This document shows positions 2,274 to 58,045 of a DNA stretch of 64,000 nt, one piece after another. Position 1 is the first letter of the stretch. The number at the start of each line of letters is the position of its first letter. Made by a program: the position numbers and the translations under genes. The stretch comes from an uncultured Bdellovibrionales bacterium (GTDB taxonomy: Bacteria > Patescibacteriota > Minisyncoccia > Moranbacterales > UBA1568). The notes below the pieces were generated by a model. The model worked only from the letters and a program-made list of their open reading frames with translations. It was not told the origin of the DNA and did no database searches. The stretch is taken from contig CAZCNN010000001.1 of assembly GCA_964500505.1 (NCBI GenBank), forward strand, positions 131,826 through 195,825. The letters run 5' to 3'.

Positions 2274-3299
2274 CTACCCGAGTCGTTCCGGGGTGATACT
2301 CTTTCTCATGGCCTCCATCGTTGACTCATCGAGGAGCCCCTCGATGGCACCATACTCCCCGACGACGCTTCCGCTATTGGCAATCCCACAGGCAAGCGCC
2401 TCAGGCAGTGTCCGGCCAGCTAGGTGCGCCCCAAAGAAGCCTGATCCAAACGCGTCACCTGCTCCGGTACTATCTACTACCGTAGTGCGTGTATGAATCG
2501 GACAGTACCAGAGTTCCGTCCCGTCATAGCCCCAAGCCCCCCGCTTACCATCAGTCATCCCAATCATCTTGACACCATGACGGGCGAGACTCCGGAGGAG
2601 AAAGGCTTCGTCGTTCAGTTCATCATCAGTCGGTCGAGGACTCGACTGCATGAGGAGCTCGATGGCTTCGTCTTTATTGAGGAGAAGCACGTCGACCTCG
2701 GGAAGCATCTCAAAGATATACTTGGCATCCTCACGGATATTGTGTTGCCCCGGATTGAGCGCGAGCTTTTGTCCATACTGCTTTTTGGCCTCGCGTATGG
2801 CCAAGAGATTAGCGTGCCAATCGCCGTTTAAAGCACTGACAAAAAGCCACTCTGCCCCCTTGAGTCGAGATGACTCGACGACGAGTCGTTCATTGGCATC
2901 ACGATTGTGAAAGATAGTGCGCTCACCAGTCTCCATGACCACAATGATAGCCGAGAGGTCAGTCTTGGCATCGGGATACGTCGTAAGGAGGTCTGTGGCG
3001 ACACCGATACGGTCGAGTTCGTGCATGATGTACCGACCAATTTCGTCTCCGCCGATACAACTGTATGTTGCGACAGAGCGACCGAGTCGTGCCAAACCAC
3101 AGGCGACATTGGCCGCTACACCACCAATCGCTTCGTAGCGGTCCGCGACGCGGTACTTACCACCGAGCTCAAACGCGATTTTCTCTTTGGCTGTGATATC
3201 ATCAGGCGTCTCGAATATGATGCCTTCATCGGTCGGAAAAAATATATCCTTCGAAGAGGAGCCGATACAAATAACCTCTGGACTTTTATGAAACCACAT
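2274..3299 (-). CDS. PfkB-family carbohydrate kinase (ribokinase-like)
   Basis: C-terminal DSTGAGDAF anion-hole motif and N-terminal GG motif of the ribokinase superfamily. Confidence 0.75.
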   Translation of the reverse strand: MWFHKSPEVICIGSSSKDIFFPTDEGIIFETPDDITAKEKIAFELGGKYRVADRYEAIGGVAANVACGLARLGRSVATYSCIGGDEIGRYIMHELDRIGVATDLLTTYPDAKTDLSAIIVVMETGERTIFHNRDANERLVVESSRLKGAEWLFVSALNGDWHANLLAIREAKKQYGQKLALNPGQHNIREDAKYIFEMLPEVDVLLLNKDEAIELLMQSSPRPTDDELNDEAFLLRSLARHGVKMIGMTDGKRGAWGYDGTELWYCPIHTRTTVVDSTGAGDAFGSGFFGAHLAGRTLPEALACGIANSGSVVGEYGAIEGLLDESTMEAMRKSITPERLG

Positions 3300-3310
3300 A
3301 GTGGACTCGC

Positions 3311-4621
3311 TTATTCAGTTAGTGTGACAGGTATCTCAACCTTCTGAAGCTCTTGATAGATTTCGGAGAGGCGATTGTACTTGGCGAGGCGTTCACCTCG
3401 GGAGAGCGAGCCTGATTTGATGAATTCAGCCCCTGTCCCGACAGCCAAATCAGCGATGAAATCATCTGGTGTCTCACCAGAACGATGAGAGATGATGCGG
3501 TTCATGCTATTTGCTTGAGCAAGGCGCATACAATCCAGGGTCTCCGTCACCGTTCCGATCTGATTGACTTTGATGAGGACCGCATTGCAGGCCTTTTCAG
3601 CAATCGCTTTTTCCAATCGGGAGACATTGGTCACCAAGAGATCATCACCGATGAGCATCACGGTCTGGTGCCATGAGGCTGGCTCACGCTCGAGCTTTTC
3701 CTTCATGGCGGCCCATCCCTGCCAGTCTTCTTCATGGAGACCATCCTCGATCGACACGATAGCGTGCTTAGTCATCCATTCGCGGTAGAGATTGACCAGT
3801 GATTCTCGTGACAGCTTTACGTCTTCGGGCTTCAAGAGATACTGATCCTCTGTCTTATCATAAAATGAATCAGCTGCCACATCGAGCCCGACATAGATCT
3901 GCTCCCCGAGCACGTAGCCTGCCTCGCGCACTGCCTCGCCGATGAGTTCGAGTGCCTGAGCATGTCCCTCCACTCGTGGCGCAAATCCACCCTCATCGCC
4001 CACCGCGGTGGTGAAGCCACGTTGATGGAGCAATTCTTCCAAGGCGTGAAAAATCTCACTCCCAGCCCGGAGTTGCTCAGGAAATGAGGCAATGCCAAAG
4101 GGAACAATCTTGAATTCCTGCACGGAGAGCCCAGAATCGGCGTGTTTACCACCATTCACGATGTTGAACATCGGGACTGGGAAATGCCCCTTGGCTTCTT
4201 TCTTGCCATACAAACTGGCGATATGAGTATGAAGCGGTACACTTGCGGACAAGGCGGCAGCACGACAGACAGCAAGTGACACCCCGAGGATAGCGTTCGC
4301 CCCGAGTCGCCCCTTGTTGGGCGTCCCATCGAGCGTCCGCATCGCTTGGTCGAGCTCGGTCTGTTTCGATGCCTCCATGCCTCGCACCGCATCAGCTATG
4401 AGCGTATTTACGTGCGCCACGGCCTGAAGCACTCCTTGGCCACGGTATCGTCTGGTGTCGCCGTCACGAAGCTCCAATGCCTCAAAAGCACCGGTTGACT
4501 TCCCTGAAGGGACCCCTGCCTTGGCCACGGTACCATCGTCGAGTGTCACCCGAACCTCGACGGTCGGATCGCCCCGTGAATCAAGAATTTCACGCGCCCA
4601 CACTTCTAGAATCTTGGCCAT
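3311..4621 (-). CDS. eno: Enolase (phosphopyruvate hydratase)
   Basis: Classic enolase N-terminus (ILDSRGDPTVEV), SIEDG and KVNQIGT motifs; 436 aa. Confidence 0.95.
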   Translation of the reverse strand: MAKILEVWAREILDSRGDPTVEVRVTLDDGTVAKAGVPSGKSTGAFEALELRDGDTRRYRGQGVLQAVAHVNTLIADAVRGMEASKQTELDQAMRTLDGTPNKGRLGANAILGVSLAVCRAAALSASVPLHTHIASLYGKKEAKGHFPVPMFNIVNGGKHADSGLSVQEFKIVPFGIASFPEQLRAGSEIFHALEELLHQRGFTTAVGDEGGFAPRVEGHAQALELIGEAVREAGYVLGEQIYVGLDVAADSFYDKTEDQYLLKPEDVKLSRESLVNLYREWMTKHAIVSIEDGLHEEDWQGWAAMKEKLEREPASWHQTVMLIGDDLLVTNVSRLEKAIAEKACNAVLIKVNQIGTVTETLDCMRLAQANSMNRIISHRSGETPDDFIADLAVGTGAEFIKSGSLSRGERLAKYNRLSEIYQELQKVEIPVTLTE

Positions 4622-13503: not shown

Positions 13504-15219
13504 CTACCATCCACCGCCCCCGCCCCCACCACCGCCTCCACCCGAGGAGCCTGAGCCACCCGAACCGGAAGGCGTCCCGGTATTCGAAGCAATACTCGAC
13601 GAAAGGGACTCGATGTGGGATGAAAAGCTCTCAGTATCGAAACCTCCCATATCCGACGCCACAAACCAGGCTGGATGATAGCCAGTGAAATACGCTTCGC
13701 CGTAGAGCTCTCGCATCTTGGCGACCCACTCCTTGGTCATCCCAAACACGATTGCAGCCGGGAGCAAAACTTCAAAAATACGCTCTTTTTCATAAAACTG
13801 TTGGCGCGCCTTTTCGGCTGTTTCCATATAGAGTTTGAGCCCTCCGATCTTCCAATTCGTCTCAGTGCCAAGAAGCGTGCGCTTGGGCATCACGAGTCCA
13901 AAGCCGATGAGAATAAGACCCGAAAAGCACACTGCCCCTGCTGCTACCAAGTACGAATGAGCGAGCAAGAAAACGCTCGCCATAATCAAGAGCACTCCCA
14001 ATATCAGGAACAAGACTCGATACTTCAGTCCCTCTTTCACGAGCAATCCCTTGGTAGCGAGTGACTCGGTGACTGACTTTTTGATTTCTGGCACCACTCT
14101 ATAAAACTTATTTTTGAGCGCTGAGAGTTTCACGCTATCGCCGGTGGCAAATATGGCATCAAGGAGAAGCTGCTCTGCTTTCGTCAGCGTGAGACCAGGG
14201 CGTTCATGCTTTTCCAAGATAAACTCCTTGGTCGAGAAAAACAGAATCTTGGTCTCCTCCTCTCGAATAGAAAGTGCTCCCTTGACCGCGAGCTCGATGA
14301 TGCCAGCCGTCACAAACTCGTTCTTCCAGTCACCATTGGTCGAAAGCATGCCGAGTTCAAGAGCATTCAAGTGTGCTGGGATTTCATATTCCGGGATCAC
14401 GACTTTATCCCAAGCTGGATCGTCACCATACTTCCGCCATGTGCGGTACGCCGATCGCCAAACAAGGAAGGGCAAGAGCCAGACGAGATAGGCGCCATAG
14501 GTTTCCCACCAGCCGAATTGATACGGAGTAAATATCCCCTTTGGGACACTGACTGAGAGGGTGATGCCCTCGCCCGGTGCGAGCATCCGCTTGCCGACGA
14601 TAATCAGTCGTTCTCCCTGCCAGCTCGCCTCGGCAAGAGTATTGTCCTTGGCTCCAAGTACCCCGCTATAGAGCGAGAGATTATTCTCCTCACGAGTCAC
14701 TCCCGCCGGAAACACGATACTCGCCTCATAGGCATCGATGTCCATGTCCCAAAAATGGCCATTCACATTCCAGTAAAACTCGTCTGAGGCCGGGTTCGAC
14801 CGGATGACGTTACGCACCTGATACACGATTTTGTATTGGTGGACCCCCGTAACCGTCACATCAGGATCGCCAATCTTCCACGTGATGGTCGCATCACCAC
14901 GATTGACTGTCTCCGTATACGGATAGGACTGCCCGGCAAAGTCAGTGATCGAGATGAGCTCCGTCGGAGTCTTGATCGTTTCTCTCTCAGTTCGGGCCTC
15001 GGTCGGCACAATCCGGAAAATCCCGTGCTTCCCCACACACTCGCCACAGTCAGCCGTGATCCACTCCGTCACCGTCATAGTCGAATCCGGTGCGAGCACA
15101 AACTCGGCTCGGAGATCCTTCACATACCAATTGGACACATTCTCCCGCGCTTCTGCTCCTGATATTCCCATCATGAAAAGCATGAGAACAACTCCGAAAG
15201 TACCAAGAACTCTACCCAT
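13504..15219 (-). CDS. DUF2207-family membrane protein with a C-terminal poly-Gly tail
   Basis: Signal peptide, large extracytoplasmic N-domain, 3 TM helices, cytoplasmic region ending SGGSGSSGGGGGGGGGGGW; architecture typical of DUF2207. Confidence 0.7.
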   Translation of the reverse strand: MGRVLGTFGVVLMLFMMGISGAEARENVSNWYVKDLRAEFVLAPDSTMTVTEWITADCGECVGKHGIFRIVPTEARTERETIKTPTELISITDFAGQSYPYTETVNRGDATITWKIGDPDVTVTGVHQYKIVYQVRNVIRSNPASDEFYWNVNGHFWDMDIDAYEASIVFPAGVTREENNLSLYSGVLGAKDNTLAEASWQGERLIIVGKRMLAPGEGITLSVSVPKGIFTPYQFGWWETYGAYLVWLLPFLVWRSAYRTWRKYGDDPAWDKVVIPEYEIPAHLNALELGMLSTNGDWKNEFVTAGIIELAVKGALSIREEETKILFFSTKEFILEKHERPGLTLTKAEQLLLDAIFATGDSVKLSALKNKFYRVVPEIKKSVTESLATKGLLVKEGLKYRVLFLILGVLLIMASVFLLAHSYLVAAGAVCFSGLILIGFGLVMPKRTLLGTETNWKIGGLKLYMETAEKARQQFYEKERIFEVLLPAAIVFGMTKEWVAKMRELYGEAYFTGYHPAWFVASDMGGFDTESFSSHIESLSSSIASNTGTPSGSGGSGSSGGGGGGGGGGGW

Positions 15220-21913: not shown

Positions 21914-21947
21914 AACAGTTGTTACGTAACGAATTACGTAATTCATT
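21912..21947. promoter_or_regulatory. Three tandem 12-bp units each containing the palindrome TTACGTAA (gTTACGTAAcga / aTTACGTAAttc / aTTACGTAAttg): a candidate operator upstream of ddl
   Basis: TTACGTAA at 21912, 21924 and 21936, an exact 12-bp phase; located between the upstream Nudix gene stop and the ddl start. Confidence 0.55.
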
Positions 21948-22422
21948 ACGTAATTGAGAGTTCATTCACTTCCTCGACGTGATTCTCGAGGACCGAGTCT
22001 CCTTCACCAAAAAGAAACCGGGTCCGAAACTTCTTGCCGGCGAGAAACACTGGTATCCAGTGGATATCGTCTGGCCACATGGCATCATAGGGAATAGCAT
22101 CGGTAGTAAACCACTGGGGGCGCATCTCCTCAGTCTCACGAGGCTCACCTTCCCAAGCAGTGACTCGGTAGACATAAACCTCGAGGATATTGCCCCGGTC
22201 GCGGGCAAATTCAAACTCGTGCATCCCTACGGCCTCCATCTCGGTAATAGTCACACCGGATTCTTCCAGCGTTTCACGCTTGGCTCCCTCTTCGATACTT
22301 TCGCCCTCTTCAACTTTCCCACCGAACCCATTCCATCGACCAGCACCAAAACCACGCTTCTTCATCCCAAGGAGGATGCGACCGTCGCGGACAATGAGGC
22401 AAAGAGTAAGAATGGTTCTCAT
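21946..22422 (-). CDS. Nudix hydrolase
   Basis: Nudix box GGKVEEGESIEEGAKRETLEESGV. Confidence 0.8.
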   Translation of the reverse strand: MRTILTLCLIVRDGRILLGMKKRGFGAGRWNGFGGKVEEGESIEEGAKRETLEESGVTITEMEAVGMHEFEFARDRGNILEVYVYRVTAWEGEPRETEEMRPQWFTTDAIPYDAMWPDDIHWIPVFLAGKKFRTRFLFGEGDSVLENHVEEVNELSIT

Positions 22423-47366: not shown

Positions 47367-48722
47367 ATGCATTCACTCTCATCGATGAAAATCCTCCTCG
47401 GCCTCTCAGCCATCACCACCTTTGGGGCGATGCTCGGTCTCGTCGTCGGATTTTCACCCCTCCTCCCTGTGGTAGGAGCGGCCGGGATACTCGCTCTCTT
47501 TCTCCTGTTTCGGGCTCCTCTCATGCTCCTCTTTGCGCTCATCGTGGTCCGGATGTCACTCGACTATTCTTCACAGTATGTGAGCCTCACACTGTACCAG
47601 ATTACCCTCACGCTCTCTCAGCTCCTCGGTGTCGGTATCGCGTGCCTCGGATTCCTCATCATCATCCTCAAGCGTCAGTATCTCACTCGCTACCCACTCA
47701 ACGCACCCTTTCTCCTCCTCTTTATCTGGGGCGGTCTCACCCTCTCGTATAGTATCGCTCCCGGGACCACTCTCTCCGAACTCCTCCGCATCTTTGATCT
47801 CTTTGTCCTCGGCTTTCTCGCTTACGCCACGGTGCGCACAGCTGATGATTTCCGCCACCTCCTTCAGTCGTTCTTTGTCTCGAGTATCCTCCCTATTGGC
47901 TTTGGACTGTACCAATTTTTCTTTCACATCGGTCTCGCAGATGAGAATGTCTCCATCCTCCGCATCTTTGGCACCTTTAGTCACCCAAACGTCTACAGCC
48001 TCTACCTCTTTGCTCTCGTCGTCTTTGGGACACTCTACCTCACCCTCTTTGCCCGGACCATGTGGCAGCGTCTACTCATCCTCACGCTCCTCGGCCTCTT
48101 TACCCTCATGCTTCTCCTCACCTTTGCTCGGGTGGCCTGGATCGCACTCTTTCTCTTTGTCTTCTTGATCGCGCTCTTTCGCTATCGCCTGCTCCTCTTT
48201 CCGCTCTTTCTCTTCCCCTTTGTCCTCTTTGTCTTTTCGCAGAGTTTCCAGGCCCGCGTGAGCGAGAGTCTCCAGTCTGATCCAGATAGCTCGCTCCTCT
48301 GGCGCGTCACCCTCTGGCAAGACGTCACCCGCTACTCGGTCCAAGAAGAACACGCTCTCCTCGGGTCCGGTATGGATACCTTTCCTCGCGTCTCGGAGAG
48401 TCTCCGTGGTACCTCTCATGGTCCCAATGATCCGCACAATGATTTTGTGAAATTCTTTATCGAAGGTGGAGTGATCGGGATTGGAGTCCTTGTCCTCTAC
48501 CTCGGACTCATCGCTCGCCTCCATATCCGTGGTTACCGCATGAGTCGCGCTGGGAGCGGGCTCCAGATAGCATTTGGCATCATGCTCGTCTTTTTCCTCA
48601 CCCTCGAAGCCTCGGCCCTCACCGACAATATATTCAAAAACACCCCCGTCCAGTGGCTCTTCTTCACGGCCCTCGGCGCCCTTCTCGCCCTCTCCGAAGC
48701 CAAGAAAAAACTTGATCAATAG
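47367..48722 (+). CDS. O-antigen ligase / Wzy-like polymerase family membrane protein
   Basis: About 12 TM with a large loop late in the sequence; position within the polysaccharide locus. Confidence 0.65.
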   Translation: MHSLSSMKILLGLSAITTFGAMLGLVVGFSPLLPVVGAAGILALFLLFRAPLMLLFALIVVRMSLDYSSQYVSLTLYQITLTLSQLLGVGIACLGFLIIILKRQYLTRYPLNAPFLLLFIWGGLTLSYSIAPGTTLSELLRIFDLFVLGFLAYATVRTADDFRHLLQSFFVSSILPIGFGLYQFFFHIGLADENVSILRIFGTFSHPNVYSLYLFALVVFGTLYLTLFARTMWQRLLILTLLGLFTLMLLLTFARVAWIALFLFVFLIALFRYRLLLFPLFLFPFVLFVFSQSFQARVSESLQSDPDSSLLWRVTLWQDVTRYSVQEEHALLGSGMDTFPRVSESLRGTSHGPNDPHNDFVKFFIEGGVIGIGVLVLYLGLIARLHIRGYRMSRAGSGLQIAFGIMLVFFLTLEASALTDNIFKNTPVQWLFFTALGALLALSEAKKKLDQ

Positions 48723-48791
48723 CCAGTTTTCTCTCTTTATCTTTTGTTTTTCAACTTTTCCCTGTATCTCCACCTATCTCCCATCTCTTTC

Positions 48792-48826
48792 GGCTCCCGA
48801 AATCGCGGTCGCGAATATACGAGCCA
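48792..48826. repeat. Repeat copy 1: GGCTCCCGAAATCGCGGTCGCGAATATACGAGCC
   Basis: Direct repeat of 49401-49434, with the central GGTC replaced by GACC (inverted core) and a C/G difference near the 3' end. Confidence 0.7.
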
Positions 48827-48836
48827 TCATGCATGT

Positions 48837-49382
48837 ATGAGACTTGGACCAACACAGCAAAAGATACTTCTCCTGCTTCTTGGTGGACTCGCCCTTGGTT
48901 GTTCTTTCTCACCAAAAACCAGTTTTCGTGTTGTCAAACTCGTGCACCGGGGATGGCGGGACATCAATCAGAAGAATCTGAATCGATCTTTACGACTCCT
49001 TTATACCCAACAGCTGATCACTGATCGAAGGAACCCTGATGGATCTATCTCTCTCATTCTGACGCCAGAAGGAAAGCGCCAAGCCACACTCGGACAACTC
49101 CTCGGTCTCAAAATTAAAAAACCAAAGCGTTGGGACCAGCTCTGGCGCATCGTGCTTTTTGATATTCCAGAAAAACACAAAAAGTTTCGCGATATTTTTC
49201 GCTCTCACCTCAAAGCCATCGGCTTCCATGAACTCCAGCACAGTGTCTTTGTTTTTCCCTTCCCTTGTGAAAAAGAGATACTATCATTGGTCGAACTCTA
49301 TCATGCCACACCGTACGTTCGCTTCATTACTGCCAAACATATCGATAACGAGTCGACGCTCAAAAAGAAATTTTCTTTATAG
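48837..49382 (+). CDS. Winged-helix regulator-like protein with a PaaX C-terminal-like block (WDQLWRIVLFDIPEKHKKFRDIFRSHLKAIGFHELQHSVFVFP)
   Basis: Start at ATG 48837; resembles the PaaX-family C-terminal motif (WDGxW..V.F.VPE..R..R..LR..L...GF..L...VW). Confidence 0.5.
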   Translation: MRLGPTQQKILLLLLGGLALGCSFSPKTSFRVVKLVHRGWRDINQKNLNRSLRLLYTQQLITDRRNPDGSISLILTPEGKRQATLGQLLGLKIKKPKRWDQLWRIVLFDIPEKHKKFRDIFRSHLKAIGFHELQHSVFVFPFPCEKEILSLVELYHATPYVRFITAKHIDNESTLKKKFSL

Positions 49383-49400
49383 AAGCAATTTCTTTATACT

Positions 49401-49434
49401 GGCTCCCGAAATCGCGACCGCGAATATAGGAGCC
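49401..49434. repeat. Repeat copy 2: GGCTCCCGAAATCGCGACCGCGAATATAGGAGCC
   Basis: See copy 1. Confidence 0.7.
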
Positions 49435-49495
49435 ACTGGTATAAAATTGGTGCGATAGGGTTCGATAGTAGGATAGATGGAAAAATATAATTTGG

Positions 49496-49540
49496 GTAAA
49501 AAAAGAGGAGTTCCAGAGTGCGGTTGCACTTGAAACTCCT
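49496..49540 (-). terminator. Rho-independent terminator for the 49594-50235 gene
   Basis: Minus strand GGAGTTtcaagtgcaaccgcactctgGAACTCC followed by TCTTTTTTTACC. Confidence 0.55.
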
Positions 49541-49593
49541 GTTGTTGAACCGCATCAGCGATGCGGGGCTTGGCCTTGCCGGCGCCGGGATGC

Positions 49594-50235
49594 CTAGGCG
49601 GCGTCCTGGCAGGCGCTGGCGTACTCCTCGCGGTTGTACTTGTCGGCCTCTTCCTTGGTGGCCGGCCGCCAGGTGCCGTTGGCTTCGACGAAGAAGACGC
49701 TGGCCTGTTGCGACTTTCCCTTGCACGTGAGCTGTTGACGCGCTTCGGCCGGGTGCGAGACCCAGGTGATGTGCTTGCCGCTGTTGTCGCGGAGCTCCGG
49801 CGTCATGGCGACCACCTCACCACGGACGTCGGTGGCCACCTGGTGCTTGGCCACGCCCTTGGCACTCACCGTCGAGCACGACATCTGGCTCCAGCCCTTT
49901 CGGCCGACGCCACGCCAGCACAACTTGTAGTTGGCCATGCCGACGTTGTCGCCGAAGCTCGAGATGTTGGCGTTCTTGCTCGGATCGCTCGTGTCGGGCT
50001 TGGTTGCCTCGACCTTGAGGCCAGCCGGCGCCGTCTCGTCCGACAGAACCACCATCTTGATACCGGAGGTCTTGAAGATGGCCACGCCAGGCTTGCCCTT
50101 GACGTTCTCGATGGCGACCGACGTGTCGCCGTCGCCGACCTGGTTCACGTTCTTCTGCGAGGTGAACTGAGCCAAGGCCGGGAGGGCTGCGAGTGCCACG
50201 ACGAACGTGGCGAGGATCTTGGAAACGAACTTCAT
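49594..50235 (-). CDS. Secreted hypothetical protein (island gene 1)
   Basis: Signal peptide MKFVSKILATFVVALAALPALAQ; strongly GC3-biased codons unlike neighbouring genes. Confidence 0.6.
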   Translation of the reverse strand: MKFVSKILATFVVALAALPALAQFTSQKNVNQVGDGDTSVAIENVKGKPGVAIFKTSGIKMVVLSDETAPAGLKVEATKPDTSDPSKNANISSFGDNVGMANYKLCWRGVGRKGWSQMSCSTVSAKGVAKHQVATDVRGEVVAMTPELRDNSGKHITWVSHPAEARQQLTCKGKSQQASVFFVEANGTWRPATKEEADKYNREEYASACQDAA

Positions 50236-50428
50236 GGCGCTGTCCTTTCAGACAGTTGTGGTTGAGTTGATGCGCCTGATAATCAACCCAACCGAGTCGA
50301 TGAATTCAGGCGCGAGGAACAGAAACCGTCCAACGGGCACCTCTTGACGAGGTATCCACTGAACAATTCAGTATACACCCAAATGGCTCTTTTGTCAAGA
50401 GCTAATTGTGGGCAGAAATAAGCCTAGA

Positions 50429-50471
50429 ATAGCGCGTAAAAAAGACTTAGGCCGGGATCCTCGATGAGTTC
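50429..50471 (-). terminator. Rho-independent terminator for the 50672-52261 gene
   Basis: Minus strand TAGGCCGGGA-12 nt-TCCCGGCCTA followed by AGTCTTTTTTAC. Confidence 0.6.
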
Positions 50472-50671
50472 CCGGCCTAGTTGTGCGATGTTGTCGCTGA
50501 CTGTTTTGCTCTCGCTACCTACATCAAATCTCGTCGTGTACGTCGCATGTGCATGTTCTGCACCTTGGCGCGTAACCTTTTTATAGAACGTGAGAAGAGC
50601 CCAAATGGTTTCTCAGACGCTAGATGCTCCTAGGGAGCACCTACTTAGATGTTGAAGGTAGAGAATGTCTA

Positions 50672-52261
50672 TCAGTCTGGCGTTTCGTCGTCGGGGTCGA
50701 GCGGGGTCATGACAGTGCCGTTACCGAGCACGGCCGTCTTCCCGTCACTCACCTGGTCCAGGCGATAACCTTCACGACCGACTTCGACCAACTTGACGCC
50801 GTCGCACCACCAGCCGTAGCCGGGTGCTTCGCCACCATGAAGGAGATCAAAGTCGAACCCTATGCCAACACCACAGACCCTGAGGGGGTCCGAGATGCCA
50901 AGGCGCAGATTGGCCGTCTGAGAGAACGGGAGTTCACTGAAGAACCCTACCCGTGCCCAGAACGTCGCGAACTTCGCGTCGTAGATGTCCTGGTGGACAC
51001 CGGCCTGAAACACCACGCTGTGGCGCTCCAGTTCCGACGCGTCAGTCGGTTGCAAGAAGTTGCTCGCCGTGGCCCGCACTGAGGTCGGGATACCCACGCT
51101 AGCGTAGATGCGCGTTTCCGGCATCCACTTCTTGCCCGCCAAACGATTCGAGTAATCGTTGTAAGCCACCGAAGCGCCAACAAAATCGATTTCCCGTTCG
51201 TTGCGGTACTGTGCCTGGCTGAATGCCTGGTGCATGTGGCCAAAGAGCAACTTGCCCTCTGCCGTCCAGCCCTTGTCGCTGATCCGCTCAACAGCAGGAC
51301 CAAAGGCGAGTGATTGACCGTGAGCCCTTCCGGACCCAAAGTTCACGCGCACATCCCACCATGAGTTCTGGAGGCCGACACCCCACCCCGTGTAGCCGTC
51401 CCCAACCCGCTTGATGCAGTACAGGGCAGCCGTCACAAAGGTTGAGTGAGACTCGTTGCCGTTGTCGTTCGGCTCATGCTCTTGTCCGAACACGAGCTTG
51501 GGATCAAGGAGGCAACGCCTCTCTGCAACCACCGTCTTCGGCGGGATGACGAGCTCGCCGATTTCTTCCTCTTCCACCACCTTTTTGCGAGGTGGTATGA
51601 CGAGCTCGCCGATTTCTTCCTCTGCCGTCCGCGTTGTGATTGCAGGCGGGAGTGGCGTACCAACGACCCAGTTGTTGCAATTACGTACCCAGTGGAAGAC
51701 CTTGCCACTCTTGAGGATGTAGGTCCTCGCGAGCACCACGGTCTTCTCGCTCCAATCGGCCAAAACGTTCTTCTCGAACGACACCTTGCCGTCCTTACAG
51801 AACGCCACTGCCTGGAACCGATCACCGGGCTTGAAGAAGGTGTATGCTGGATGTGGTTGAGCCGACACCAGTCCGCGGAGTTCGGATTTCTCCTCGTCCG
51901 TGAGACCCATCTGGGTCCACGCTTCTTCATTCAGCACCGCTTCGGTCTTGTTGCCGCAACCATAGAGCGGTGCGCCCCCGACCTTCTTCCAGCGAAATTC
52001 GCCGGCTTCGGTCGAGGCAACTGCCGACACGGACCGCGTACGGACACCAGCCGGGAGGATATAGCTCTTCCCAGCGATGATGCCGTTGCAATTCGTGATA
52101 CGACCAGCGACCTTGTTGGCGTCGCACACCGCTTGGGCATGCTTGCCGAAAACCGCTGACAGCGTGTCTCCGCGCTCTGCCCGATACTCGGACTGAGTCG
52201 CGTGTGCACCACCCACTCCGGAGAGCAAAGCAGCGCACAGAGGAATCATGAGCCATTTCAT
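50672..52261 (-). CDS. Exported protein with an N-terminal LysM-like motif, a tandem 17-aa repeat and a beta-rich C-domain (island gene 2)
   Basis: Signal peptide MKWLMIPLCAALLSGVGGAHA; YRAERGDTLSAVF...SYILP resembles LysM; EEEIGELVIPP occurs twice; C-terminal about 270 aa has alternating hydrophobic/aromatic strands. Confidence 0.55.
   Translation of the reverse strand: MKWLMIPLCAALLSGVGGAHATQSEYRAERGDTLSAVFGKHAQAVCDANKVAGRITNCNGIIAGKSYILPAGVRTRSVSAVASTEAGEFRWKKVGGAPLYGCGNKTEAVLNEEAWTQMGLTDEEKSELRGLVSAQPHPAYTFFKPGDRFQAVAFCKDGKVSFEKNVLADWSEKTVVLARTYILKSGKVFHWVRNCNNWVVGTPLPPAITTRTAEEEIGELVIPPRKKVVEEEEIGELVIPPKTVVAERRCLLDPKLVFGQEHEPNDNGNESHSTFVTAALYCIKRVGDGYTGWGVGLQNSWWDVRVNFGSGRAHGQSLAFGPAVERISDKGWTAEGKLLFGHMHQAFSQAQYRNEREIDFVGASVAYNDYSNRLAGKKWMPETRIYASVGIPTSVRATASNFLQPTDASELERHSVVFQAGVHQDIYDAKFATFWARVGFFSELPFSQTANLRLGISDPLRVCGVGIGFDFDLLHGGEAPGYGWWCDGVKLVEVGREGYRLDQVSDGKTAVLGNGTVMTPLDPDDETPD
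51546..51647. repeat. Two tandem 51-nt repeat units inside island gene 2 (encode EEEIGELVIPPRKKVVE / EEEIGELVIPPKTVVAE)
   Basis: ATGACGAGCTCGCCGATTTCTTCCTCT occurs at 51546 and again at 51597. Confidence 0.7.
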
Positions 52262-57748: not shown

Positions 57749-57824
57749 GGGTGCGTAGCTCAGTCGGTAGAGCAGTGGCCTTTTAAGCCAACGGTCGAGG
57801 GTTCGATTCCCCCCGCACCCACCA
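57749..57824 (+). tRNA. tRNA-Lys (anticodon UUU)
   Basis: Hand-folded: acceptor GGGTGCG/CGCACCC, D-loop AGTCGGTA, anticodon loop CTTTTAA, T-loop TTCGATT, encoded CCA. Confidence 0.8.
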
Positions 57825-57911: not shown

Positions 57912-57962
57912 GATATTTCGCGAGCACGCGAAACCACGAGCCGGGGTCGCGGAAATATGGCC
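57912..57962. repeat. Divergent copy of the CGCG/AAATAT repeat family seen flanking the PaaX-like gene (ATATTTCGCGagcaCGCGAAA ... GGTCGCGGAAATATGGCC)
   Basis: Compare GGTCGCGAATATACGAGCC at 48808-48826; lies inside the tRNA-Lys duplication scar. Confidence 0.4.
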
Positions 57963-57989
57963 ACGTCGGTGGACAGATTATCTGTGACC

Positions 57990-58009
57990 GATTCCCCCCG
58001 CACCCACCA
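57990..58009 (+). repeat. Exact 20-bp duplicate of the tRNA-Lys 3' end (GATTCCCCCCGCACCCACCA)
   Basis: Identical to 57805-57824, 166 bp downstream: an att-like direct repeat. Confidence 0.75.
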
Positions 58010-58012
58010 ATC

Positions 58013-58045
58013 AAAAAAAAGACCCTATTTCAGGGTCTTTTTTCT
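58013..58045. terminator. Bidirectional terminator (serS on minus; tRNA-Lys region on plus)
   Basis: A8-GACCCT-ATTTC-AGGGTC-T8. Confidence 0.65.

Follow-up and report, generated by a model that had tools for sequence, protein, structure and literature searches.

The closest described counterpart of the locus reported here is PaaX of the phenylacetate catabolon of E. coli and Pseudomonas, which combines an N-terminal winged helix and a PaaX_M dimerisation domain with a phenylacetyl-CoA-binding PaaX_C domain. The operator of the E. coli protein is a widely spaced inverted repeat, TGATTC-N27-GAATCA, and PaaX represses its own promoter (PMC9493321). The gene under study resembles PaaX in its winged helix and PaaX_M domain, the structure of the E. 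coli protein (8a39) being the best match of its fold, and also in being accompanied by a long and widely spaced inverted repeat as the putative operator. It differs by the absence of the PaaX_C domain, the protein having 181 residues as compared to 316, and by the lack of paa genes near it. Furthermore, the family to which it belongs occurs mainly in Patescibacteria, and its sites, with CG-RY-CG in their centre, flank the regulator gene upstream as well as downstream.

Several other systems are reminiscent of this arrangement. The lambdoid cI repressor has operators, OL and OR, on both sides, which co-evolve as private "immunities" and cooperate by looping; the likeness of the present locus to such a repressor gene bracketed by its cognate operators (putative in this case) is an analogy only, the differences being one palindrome per side as opposed to triple operators, no outward-facing promoters or targets evident in the window, another protein fold and a chromosomal, non-phage setting, with no PHROGs match for the protein. 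In the Hin/Gin systems, too, a gene for a DNA-binding protein of ~190 residues lies between imperfect palindromes of ~26-34 bp (hix/gix) with a special central dinucleotide; the 181-aa protein, however, contains no serine-recombinase/resolvase domain, its gene has a constant orientation in 12 assemblies as well as in the orthologues, and the centre is here merely R-Y, the orientation of the sites not being fixed. Cas2 and VapD share with the C-terminal half of the protein the ferredoxin-like fold, a beta1 motif ending in Asp and, together with weak Cas2 profile matches, the motif QxSVF, whereas the domain is here fused to a winged helix-turn-helix (wHTH) and neither cas1, a CRISPR array nor any conserved neighbour accompanies it. 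Short imperfect palindromes beside a single gene are seen also with attC, MITE and REP-RAYT elements, the RAYT gene being even flanked by its own palindromes; in the present case there are two copies with no genome dispersal and, in contrast to attC and REP-RAYT, neither an integrase nor a Y1 transposase. An integron cassette carries one attC at its 3' end, built of R''/L''-L'/R' boxes (GTTRRRY core), with intI nearby. The sites described here have no R/L boxes, possess the CG-RY-CG centre, occur at either end of the gene and are missing altogether from empty loci; the integron gene cassette as a candidate was thus rejected on the two-sided sites, the lack of an integrase within ~10 kb and the copy-free empty sites.

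The window, i.e. the whole stretch of 64 kb of DNA that was analysed, contains the following parts of the locus:

48723..48791, plus strand: pyrimidine-rich leader from the Wzy stop codon to U, a member of the present/absent block
48792-48825, no strand assigned: upstream site U, GGCTCCCGAAATCGCGGTCGCGAATATACGAGCC, a 34-bp imperfect palindrome
48837..49382, plus strand: wHTH-PaaX_M gene, 181 aa (ATG at 48837, end of the stop codon at 49382)
49401-49434, no strand assigned: downstream site D, GGCTCCCGAAATCGCGACCGCGAATATAGGAGCC, the second copy of the palindrome, between convergent genes
49435..49497, plus strand: trailing spacer from D to the shared terminator, part of the cassette-specific block
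49498..49539, minus strand: intrinsic terminator hairpin and T-run of the convergent 213-aa gene, a context element outside the cassette

The U site is laid out as GGCTC-N7-CGCG-GT-CGCG-N7-GAGCC, D having an AC centre and the outer arms GGCTCC/GGAGCC. The two copies are identical at 31 of their 34 positions (91% over 35 nt when the next A is counted), the only differences being those at positions 17-18 (GT vs AC, seen as GGTC vs GACC) and 29 (C vs G). When up to three mismatches are allowed, a degenerate pattern that includes the two copies occurs at exactly two sites in the 64 kb, the expectation from 100 dinucleotide-preserving shuffles of the window being 0.00. From the end of U to the ATG there are 11 nt, and 18 nt separate the stop codon from D. 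The preliminary description, made from the letters of the sequence, of two repeat copies flanking one 181-aa ORF is therefore confirmed, and so is the partial palindromy ascribed to each copy, with 11 of 17 complementary pairs in one and 12 of 17 in the other. By contrast, the related CGCG/AAATAT motif that it had recognised at 57912-57962 (tRNA-Lys) is a matter of chance: the gapped local alignment of that region to either copy scores at most 11, whereas unrelated best matches elsewhere in the window score 12-15. It should be pointed out here that a symmetry of 11/17 alone is common, ~60 positions of the window reaching that level.

Concerning the encoded protein, its residues 97-173 match the Pfam family PaaX_M (PF20803; E=1e-21, 77.3 bits vs a cutoff of 24), and the order of domains is an N-terminal winged helix (~1-90), a basic linker KIKKPKRWD and a PaaX_M/Cas2-like ferredoxin-fold domain (~97-175). 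In the AlphaFold2 model, based on 24 homologues and reaching a pLDDT of 87.5, residues 5-75 at the N-terminus form a winged helix (three helices plus a beta wing), the C-terminal domain following the order beta-alpha-beta-beta-alpha-beta; the winged-helix PaaX-like character proposed for the gene has thus held, both in the Pfam match and in the model. The closest PDB fold is that of E. coli PaaX (8a39; 173 aligned columns), with VapD and numerous structures of Cas2 ranking next. In the N-terminal half, the profile gives weak matches to HxlR/MarR-type winged helices, and a sequence search of solved structures yielded marginal wHTH and Cas2 matches only. No Pfam match to the PaaX_C effector domain was found in the 181-aa protein, the score with the PaaX equivalog model TIGR02277 was far below the cutoff (25.6 vs 264.55 bits), and the hhalign alignment with the 316-aa E. 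coli PaaX was limited to 47 columns in the WDxxW-beta1 region. Both Cas2 models also remained below their thresholds (CRISPR_Cas2 PF09827, 18.7 vs 23.8; TIGR01573, 23 vs 24.5), and the PADLOC Cas2 matches to the protein were partial only. The Asp of FDIPE and the QxSVF motif are, however, invariant in the family and typical of Cas2, both being missing from E. coli PaaX. As far as can be judged from the sequence, the protein is a "mini-PaaX", consisting of a predicted wHTH and a Cas2-like domain without the PaaX C-terminal effector domain. The family counts 895 clusters at 50% identity (E<=1e-30), with at least 586 loci in species-representative genomes, nearly all of them from Patescibacteria/CPR; two or more paralogues are often present in one genome, and the homologue loci are chromosomal, amid housekeeping genes.

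The comparison was extended to 80 homologue loci, in which the 300 nt on one side of the gene were compared with the 300 nt on the other; 78 of these loci were testable. A matched palindrome of ~32 bp is present on both sides of the gene in 71 of these 78 Patescibacteria loci, the mean U-D identity being 27/32, whereas the same procedure found such a pair in 4 of 119 non-adjacent genes of the same loci, three of the four matches representing the same element type. With regard to the exceptions to the bracket, at least L055 possesses the same kind of element, arranged differently. From the dyad outward, the half-site reads R (A 60%, G 40%), G (85%), C (99%) and R, continuing further out with four poorly conserved positions, W at -9 and T-A-C at -11 to -13. 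The family consensus of the centre is R-C-G-R/Y-C-G-Y (the slash marking the dyad), as exemplified by the central octamers ACGGCCGT, ACGATCGT, GCGATAGC, ACGACCGT, GCGATCGC and similar ones. Since position -1 is just a purine, the centre may be GC, AT, GT or AC, and the contrast of GT with AC in the window amounts to a pair of transitions inside the R/Y degeneracy; the "inverted core" GGTC/GACC noticed previously is therefore real, its explanation being the purine degeneracy at this half-site position. Nothing was found in the literature on this family or on the bracket in CPR/Patescibacteria, so that the architecture has apparently not been described in Patescibacteria so far.

The symmetry of the sites is distributed in blocks. 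The half-to-half complementarity amounts to 80-99% in the inner block (positions 1-4 from the dyad) and to 79-96% in the outer one (positions 11-14), with a dip to 54-69% at positions 5-7 between them. Over both sites, G-T and A-C mismatches number 97 and 86, respectively, revealing no strand bias, and those compatible with a sense or an antisense G-U pair are 45 vs 47 for U and 52 vs 39 for D. Two blocks per half-site, situated about one helical turn apart and without strand bias, fit a protein on double-stranded DNA, and the pattern as a whole fits a double-stranded site for a symmetric dimer rather than an RNA or cruciform stem. Given the wide inverted repeat recognised by PaaX, the geometry of U and D is as expected for a PaaX-type fold.

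The outer arms, on the other hand, are private to each locus, the mismatch fraction over the outer 12 nt being 0.23 within a locus vs 0.64 between loci. Paralogues of one genome differ in their arms (L026/L030, L051/L052, L020/L036, L045/L076 and L021/L079), those of the pair L026/L030 being unrelated (CGAGATGGCGATCGCCATCTCG vs GAGCTTACGATCGTAAGCTC), and syntenic orthologues sharing 67-77% protein identity have entirely different ones (GGCTCCCGAAAT..., CTCTTATTAT..., TTTTATTC..., CCTCATTTTCTC...), although U matches D inside the genome of each of them. Because the arms are private and U matches D in each locus, the specificity factor must be encoded in cis, and as the gene between the sites encodes a DNA-binding protein, this is the obvious candidate reader of U and D; from the linkage and co-variation we infer that the protein would be their binder. 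The wHTH half exhibits a higher mean divergence than the Cas2-like half (0.57 vs 0.46), as expected if the DNA specificity diversifies. The partial Mantel correlations are significant, with partial r of 0.13 for the wHTH and 0.11 for the Cas2-like domain, i.e. the wHTH is not singled out.

Concerning the position of the upstream site, its dyad lies, family-wide, at a median of -64 from the match start, with the mode at -32/-35. The U sites of the compact Moranbacteria group overlap TGnTACAAT or TATAAT-like elements, and in some of these loci the right arm runs into a TGnTACAAT located 6-7 nt ahead of the ATG, an arrangement suggestive of a leaderless transcript in this group; in the P0057 locus, a perfect palindrome adjoins TGATATAAT. 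As judged by these predicted elements, U is promoter-proximal in the family. The generic features of an autoregulated repressor, i.e. a symmetric and promoter-adjacent site that co-varies with the regulator, are accordingly found. In the window itself, the sigma-70 scan revealed no convincing promoter overlapping U and the geometry of repression is for that reason uncertain there. The downstream dyad has its median at +32 nt after the stop codon, the closest one being at +2. The D site is present in 21 of 22 loci with a convergent next gene (the situation in the window) and in 46 of 52 with a co-directional one, the U-D identity being the same in both cases; since it is kept whatever the direction of the next gene, D belongs to the regulator gene and is not a borrowed operator. 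The dyad-to-dyad distances of 600-878 bp show no helical phasing.

It is probable that the protein encoded between the 34-bp repeats is a minimal dimeric repressor of the PaaX type and that the repeats are its cognate operators. Of the three readings that had been offered for them, this one, paired autoregulated operators, is in agreement with the family-wide bracket, the private arms, the block symmetry and the PaaX-like spacing, the mobile-element readings having found no such backing. A dimer of the protein would sit on each palindrome, with its two winged helices reading the lineage-specific outer arms (here GGCTC/GAGCC, ~13-17 bp from the dyad), and the conserved centre (here CGCG-RY-CGCG) would be read by the basic linker or by the Cas2-like dimer on the dyad axis. 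With U on or next to the promoter or the 5' end of the gene, its occupancy is proposed to repress the gene's own transcription, whereas D may cooperate with U, either by closing a repression loop of ~600 bp around the gene or by acting as a roadblock that insulates it from neighbouring or antisense transcription; the loop and the roadblock are both conjecture. That binding leads to repression, and that D has a function of this kind, is likewise what we infer. It should be noted that some observations speak against operators: located between convergent genes, D has no classical target; the kept Cas2 residues (the Asp of FDIPE, and QxSVF) leave room for an enzymatic role; and the atypical composition as well as the presence/absence pattern are needed by no plain housekeeping regulator.

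To our knowledge, recognisable transcription factors are very scarce in Patescibacteria, and a binding site is known for almost none of them. If the operator reading is correct, a putative cognate site could be read from the genome for each member of a family of ~900 clusters, directly so because it is written twice around the gene. The family would thereby offer a natural library of putative orthogonal repressor/operator pairs, with arms differing even at 67-77% identity, and a clean system for the co-evolution of DNA-binding specificity. A second operator behind the stop codon, whatever gene comes next, would represent an unexplained, directly testable architecture, and the lineage brings together sequence motifs of the Cas2 kind and the regulator fold of PaaX.

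The conservation and mobility of the locus were followed both in the window and among relatives. The gene order in the orthologue group is Wzy, the wHTH-PaaX_M gene, a 213-aa secreted protein and a LysM protein. In four syntenic relatives without the cassette (L106-L109), the Wzy of which is 53-71% identical, there are zero copies of the palindrome, i.e. the empty site with a single copy predicted for relatives without the gene does not occur; in L106, L107 and L109, the terminator of the convergent gene comes directly after the Wzy stop codon. The CT-rich leaders are alike in the cassette-bearing relatives L097, L099 and L100 and absent in L106-L109, and the alignment with the cassette-less relatives picks up again only at the TTTGGGTAAAAAAAG/terminator block. 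The terminator at 49498..49539, possibly a bidirectional one, is kept in relatives both with and without the cassette. Cassette-specific DNA continues outside the palindromes, for ~70 nt on the side of U and for ~60 nt on that of D; the indel is thus larger than the segment bounded by the palindromes, and these are therefore not its ends. On the tree of Wzy, the block is lacking in two outgroups and the next branch, as well as in one lineage nested among the carriers. Among strains, a ~1-kb block of low diversity (~48600-49590) covers the cassette without being bounded by the palindromes, and it was rejected as a sign of cassette exchange since its edges are not at the palindromes.

Searches of the window (up to three mismatches, core, half-site and gapped) revealed no third copy in 64 kb, nor are there any array-like (CRISPR) repeats in it. 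The scan of a metagenome collection with the 21-nt core returned the same organism's locus and four coincidences in coding sequences of unrelated high-GC organisms, so that the dispersed element, for which a search with the 34-mer and its core had been suggested, did not materialise, and a REP/MITE dispersed repeat was rejected on the local copies seen in the 64-kb window, three 20-kb loci and the metagenome scan. There is no integrase or transposase within ~10 kb on either side, and no gene family is common to more than 5 of the 80 loci, hence no linked recombinase. Systems of excision or inversion need a fixed orientation of their sites, whereas U and D are direct in 14 loci, inverted in 5 and symmetric or undefined in 52. 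The orientation of the gene relative to both flanks is identical in 12/12 same-species assemblies, and four orthologous genera have the same orientation and position; an inversion switch was rejected on this constant orientation (12/12 assemblies) and on the R-Y degenerate centre. The attC-like, MITE-like and recombination-site readings of the preliminary description were abandoned for the same reasons: local copies only, no integrase or transposase, an orientation that is not fixed and no copy in the empty sites.

Among the alternatives, an action at the level of RNA has to be weighed, in which the copies would be 5' and 3' stem-loops of the mRNA serving its stability, termination or as a target of the RRM-like Cas2 fold. 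Both copies do fold in the sense strand (-13.4 and -17.7 kcal/mol, with z of -1.4 for U and -3.4), D is, throughout the family, a 3' UTR element that follows the stop codon directly, and the homologues of Cas2 and VapD include RNases; an RNA stem, however, needs continuous pairing and tolerates wobble on the transcribed strand only, whereas here the dip at positions 5-7 would break the stem and the sense-strand G-U-compatible mismatches are not in excess. A terminator, moreover, needs neither a match to U nor lineage-private arms, D is not followed by a U-run in the window, and in the compact loci the U site, overlapping -10-like elements, may not be transcribed at all. With the folding of U being modest (z = -1.4), no strand-biased wobble, the dip and no Rfam family matching U or D, the RNA-structure reading was rejected, and we regard it as very improbable. 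A selfish or mobile cassette, in which the palindromes would be recombination or cleavage sites of the wHTH-Cas2-like protein, or which would be an autoregulated toxin-like addiction element, appears unlikely, albeit less so. Syntenic relatives indeed either have the whole block or lack it altogether, yet those without it have neither a solo site nor a footprint, only the terminator, and the indel exceeds the palindrome-bounded segment at both ends. No neighbour gene is conserved across the 80 loci and the composition is atypical (GC of 44% in the cassette vs 52% in the window, GC3 lower by 15-22 points than in the adjacent gene, as seen in each of the four carriers), whereas the constant orientation and position in 12 assemblies and four genera, the mixed orientations of U and D, the unrelated edges of the low-diversity block in the strains and the lack of multiple identical copies in any genome region examined all argue against mobility. 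The central CG-RY-CG is invariant enough for a point of cleavage or crossover, and the Cas2/VapD-like domain retains the Asp and QxSVF of Cas2, lost in E. coli PaaX, but we know of no precedent for recombinases with the Cas2 fold. A truncated copy was also found on a contig classed as viral.

Owing to the atypical GC, the unit presence/absence, the lack of conserved context and the Cas2 motifs, a selfish/mobile or enzymatic reading is nevertheless kept, at a low probability. In its enzymatic form, a self-contained wHTH-Cas2 element whose Cas2-like domain, with its catalytic signature intact, would be brought by the winged helix to the two private palindromes with their invariant CG-RY-CG centre and act there as a site-specific nuclease or synaptic protein, in a horizontally mobile or addictive cassette, we consider it improbable; were it true, such an element would be a free-living relative of Cas2 that recognises repeat-like palindromes and would bear on the origin of Cas2 and of CRISPR repeat recognition. 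There is a comparably small chance that U and D bind a protein but have another main role, be it structural, in segregation or origin-like (parS-like, iteron-like), or as operators for the neighbours. It is favoured by a next gene running co-directionally in 46 of 67 loci, by extra copies ahead of neighbouring genes and by private specificities that resemble the diversification in partition/incompatibility systems; on the other hand, D is kept equally with a convergent gene (21/22 vs 46/52) at the same U-D identity, one lineage has neighbours unrelated to those of another, neither a partner ATPase nor a replication gene is linked, and the loci are chromosomal and lie among housekeeping genes, with several paralogues per genome.

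Returning to the operators of a mini-PaaX, the extra copies in adjacent intergenic regions of some relatives would bring a few small genes of the neighbourhood into the regulon. Such extra copies are always near the gene, and the three 20-kb homologue loci scanned have local copies only. The number of copies varies: in L104 and L105, U and D are alone in 20 kb, L103 has five copies within 1.8 kb, and in L034 each of five consecutive co-directional genes has one of five copies 30-70 nt upstream of it (30-48 nt in four cases).

The whole cassette consists of the leader, the gene for the 181-aa winged-helix and PaaX_M/Cas2-like protein (the family gene), the palindromes on its two sides and the trailer. 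It is listed below with other features of the window.

Features of the window
21922-21953: the 8-bp palindrome TTACGTAA in three exact copies, 12 bp spacing
48723-49497: whole cassette (leader, upstream palindrome, gene, downstream palindrome, trailer), ~775 bp
49594-52261: on the downstream side of the cassette, genes for a 213-aa secreted protein (convergent) and a 529-aa LysM-like protein
57749-57824: tRNA-Lys, with its 3'-end segment 57804-57832 repeated at 57989-58017

The cassette is missing as a whole in four syntenic relatives (L106-L109), where the shared terminator comes directly after the stop codon of Wzy, the gene upstream of the cassette in the window. It also differs in composition, its GC content being 44%, compared with 52% for the window, and its GC3, in each of the four carriers, lying 15-22 points below that of the gene next to it. 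Across strains of the same species, both the cassette and Wzy are near-identical, whereas the genes for the 213-aa and 529-aa proteins are hypervariable, with differing positions reaching ~60% per 100 nt. This downstream region is GC-rich (59%); it should be noted that it also contains spurious long antisense ORFs, sometimes chosen by gene callers.

Concerning the homologue and comparison loci from other genomes, the following exhibit additional, variant or probably decayed arrangements.

Features of the other loci
P0057 locus (L111-L120), ~280 nt upstream of the family gene: solo palindrome CACGAGCTTAC...CGATCGTAAGCTCGTG
L105 (CP066687.1), 14912-14943: extra palindrome TAAAATTATAGAGCGATCGTTTTATAATTTTA, centre GCGATCGT, 14/16 symmetric
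L055, 823-4807: variant arrangement with six copies of an asymmetric element, core GACGGCCGTC as elsewhere
L096 (IMG/VR contig), 3001-3500: truncated homologue, N-terminus missing, beginning at residue ~38

The solo palindrome, split by an insertion (an 18-bp GC-rich hairpin), has a specificity different from that of the local sites and resembles the site of the paralogue L030; it may be what is left of a paralogue's cassette that has since been lost. At the P0057 locus, several contigs terminate within the perfect palindrome of 32 bp, an artefact of assembly. The extra palindrome of L105, with differing arms, is located 4.4 kb away from the family gene and adjoins none. Five of the six elements in L055 are found upstream, in direct orientation, around two unrelated genes, the sixth being inverted, 1.25 kb 3' of the family gene. 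The truncated homologue, from a contig classed as viral, has kept only the downstream-type site and is probably a decayed copy.

With regard to the tRNA-Lys, the second copy of its 3' end (29 nt, 90%), positioned 185 bp downstream, is an att-like scar from an element integrated or excised; no significant similarity to the cassette palindromes was found in the ~160 bp between the copies. The TTACGTAA triplet, for which 0.18 occurrences are expected within the window, probably represents the operator of some regulator other than the family protein. It occupies the upstream region of a D-Ala-D-Ala-ligase-like gene and adjoins a NUDIX gene; similar motifs, ATTACGTAAT, are also intergenic in other CPR loci (L019 and L096).
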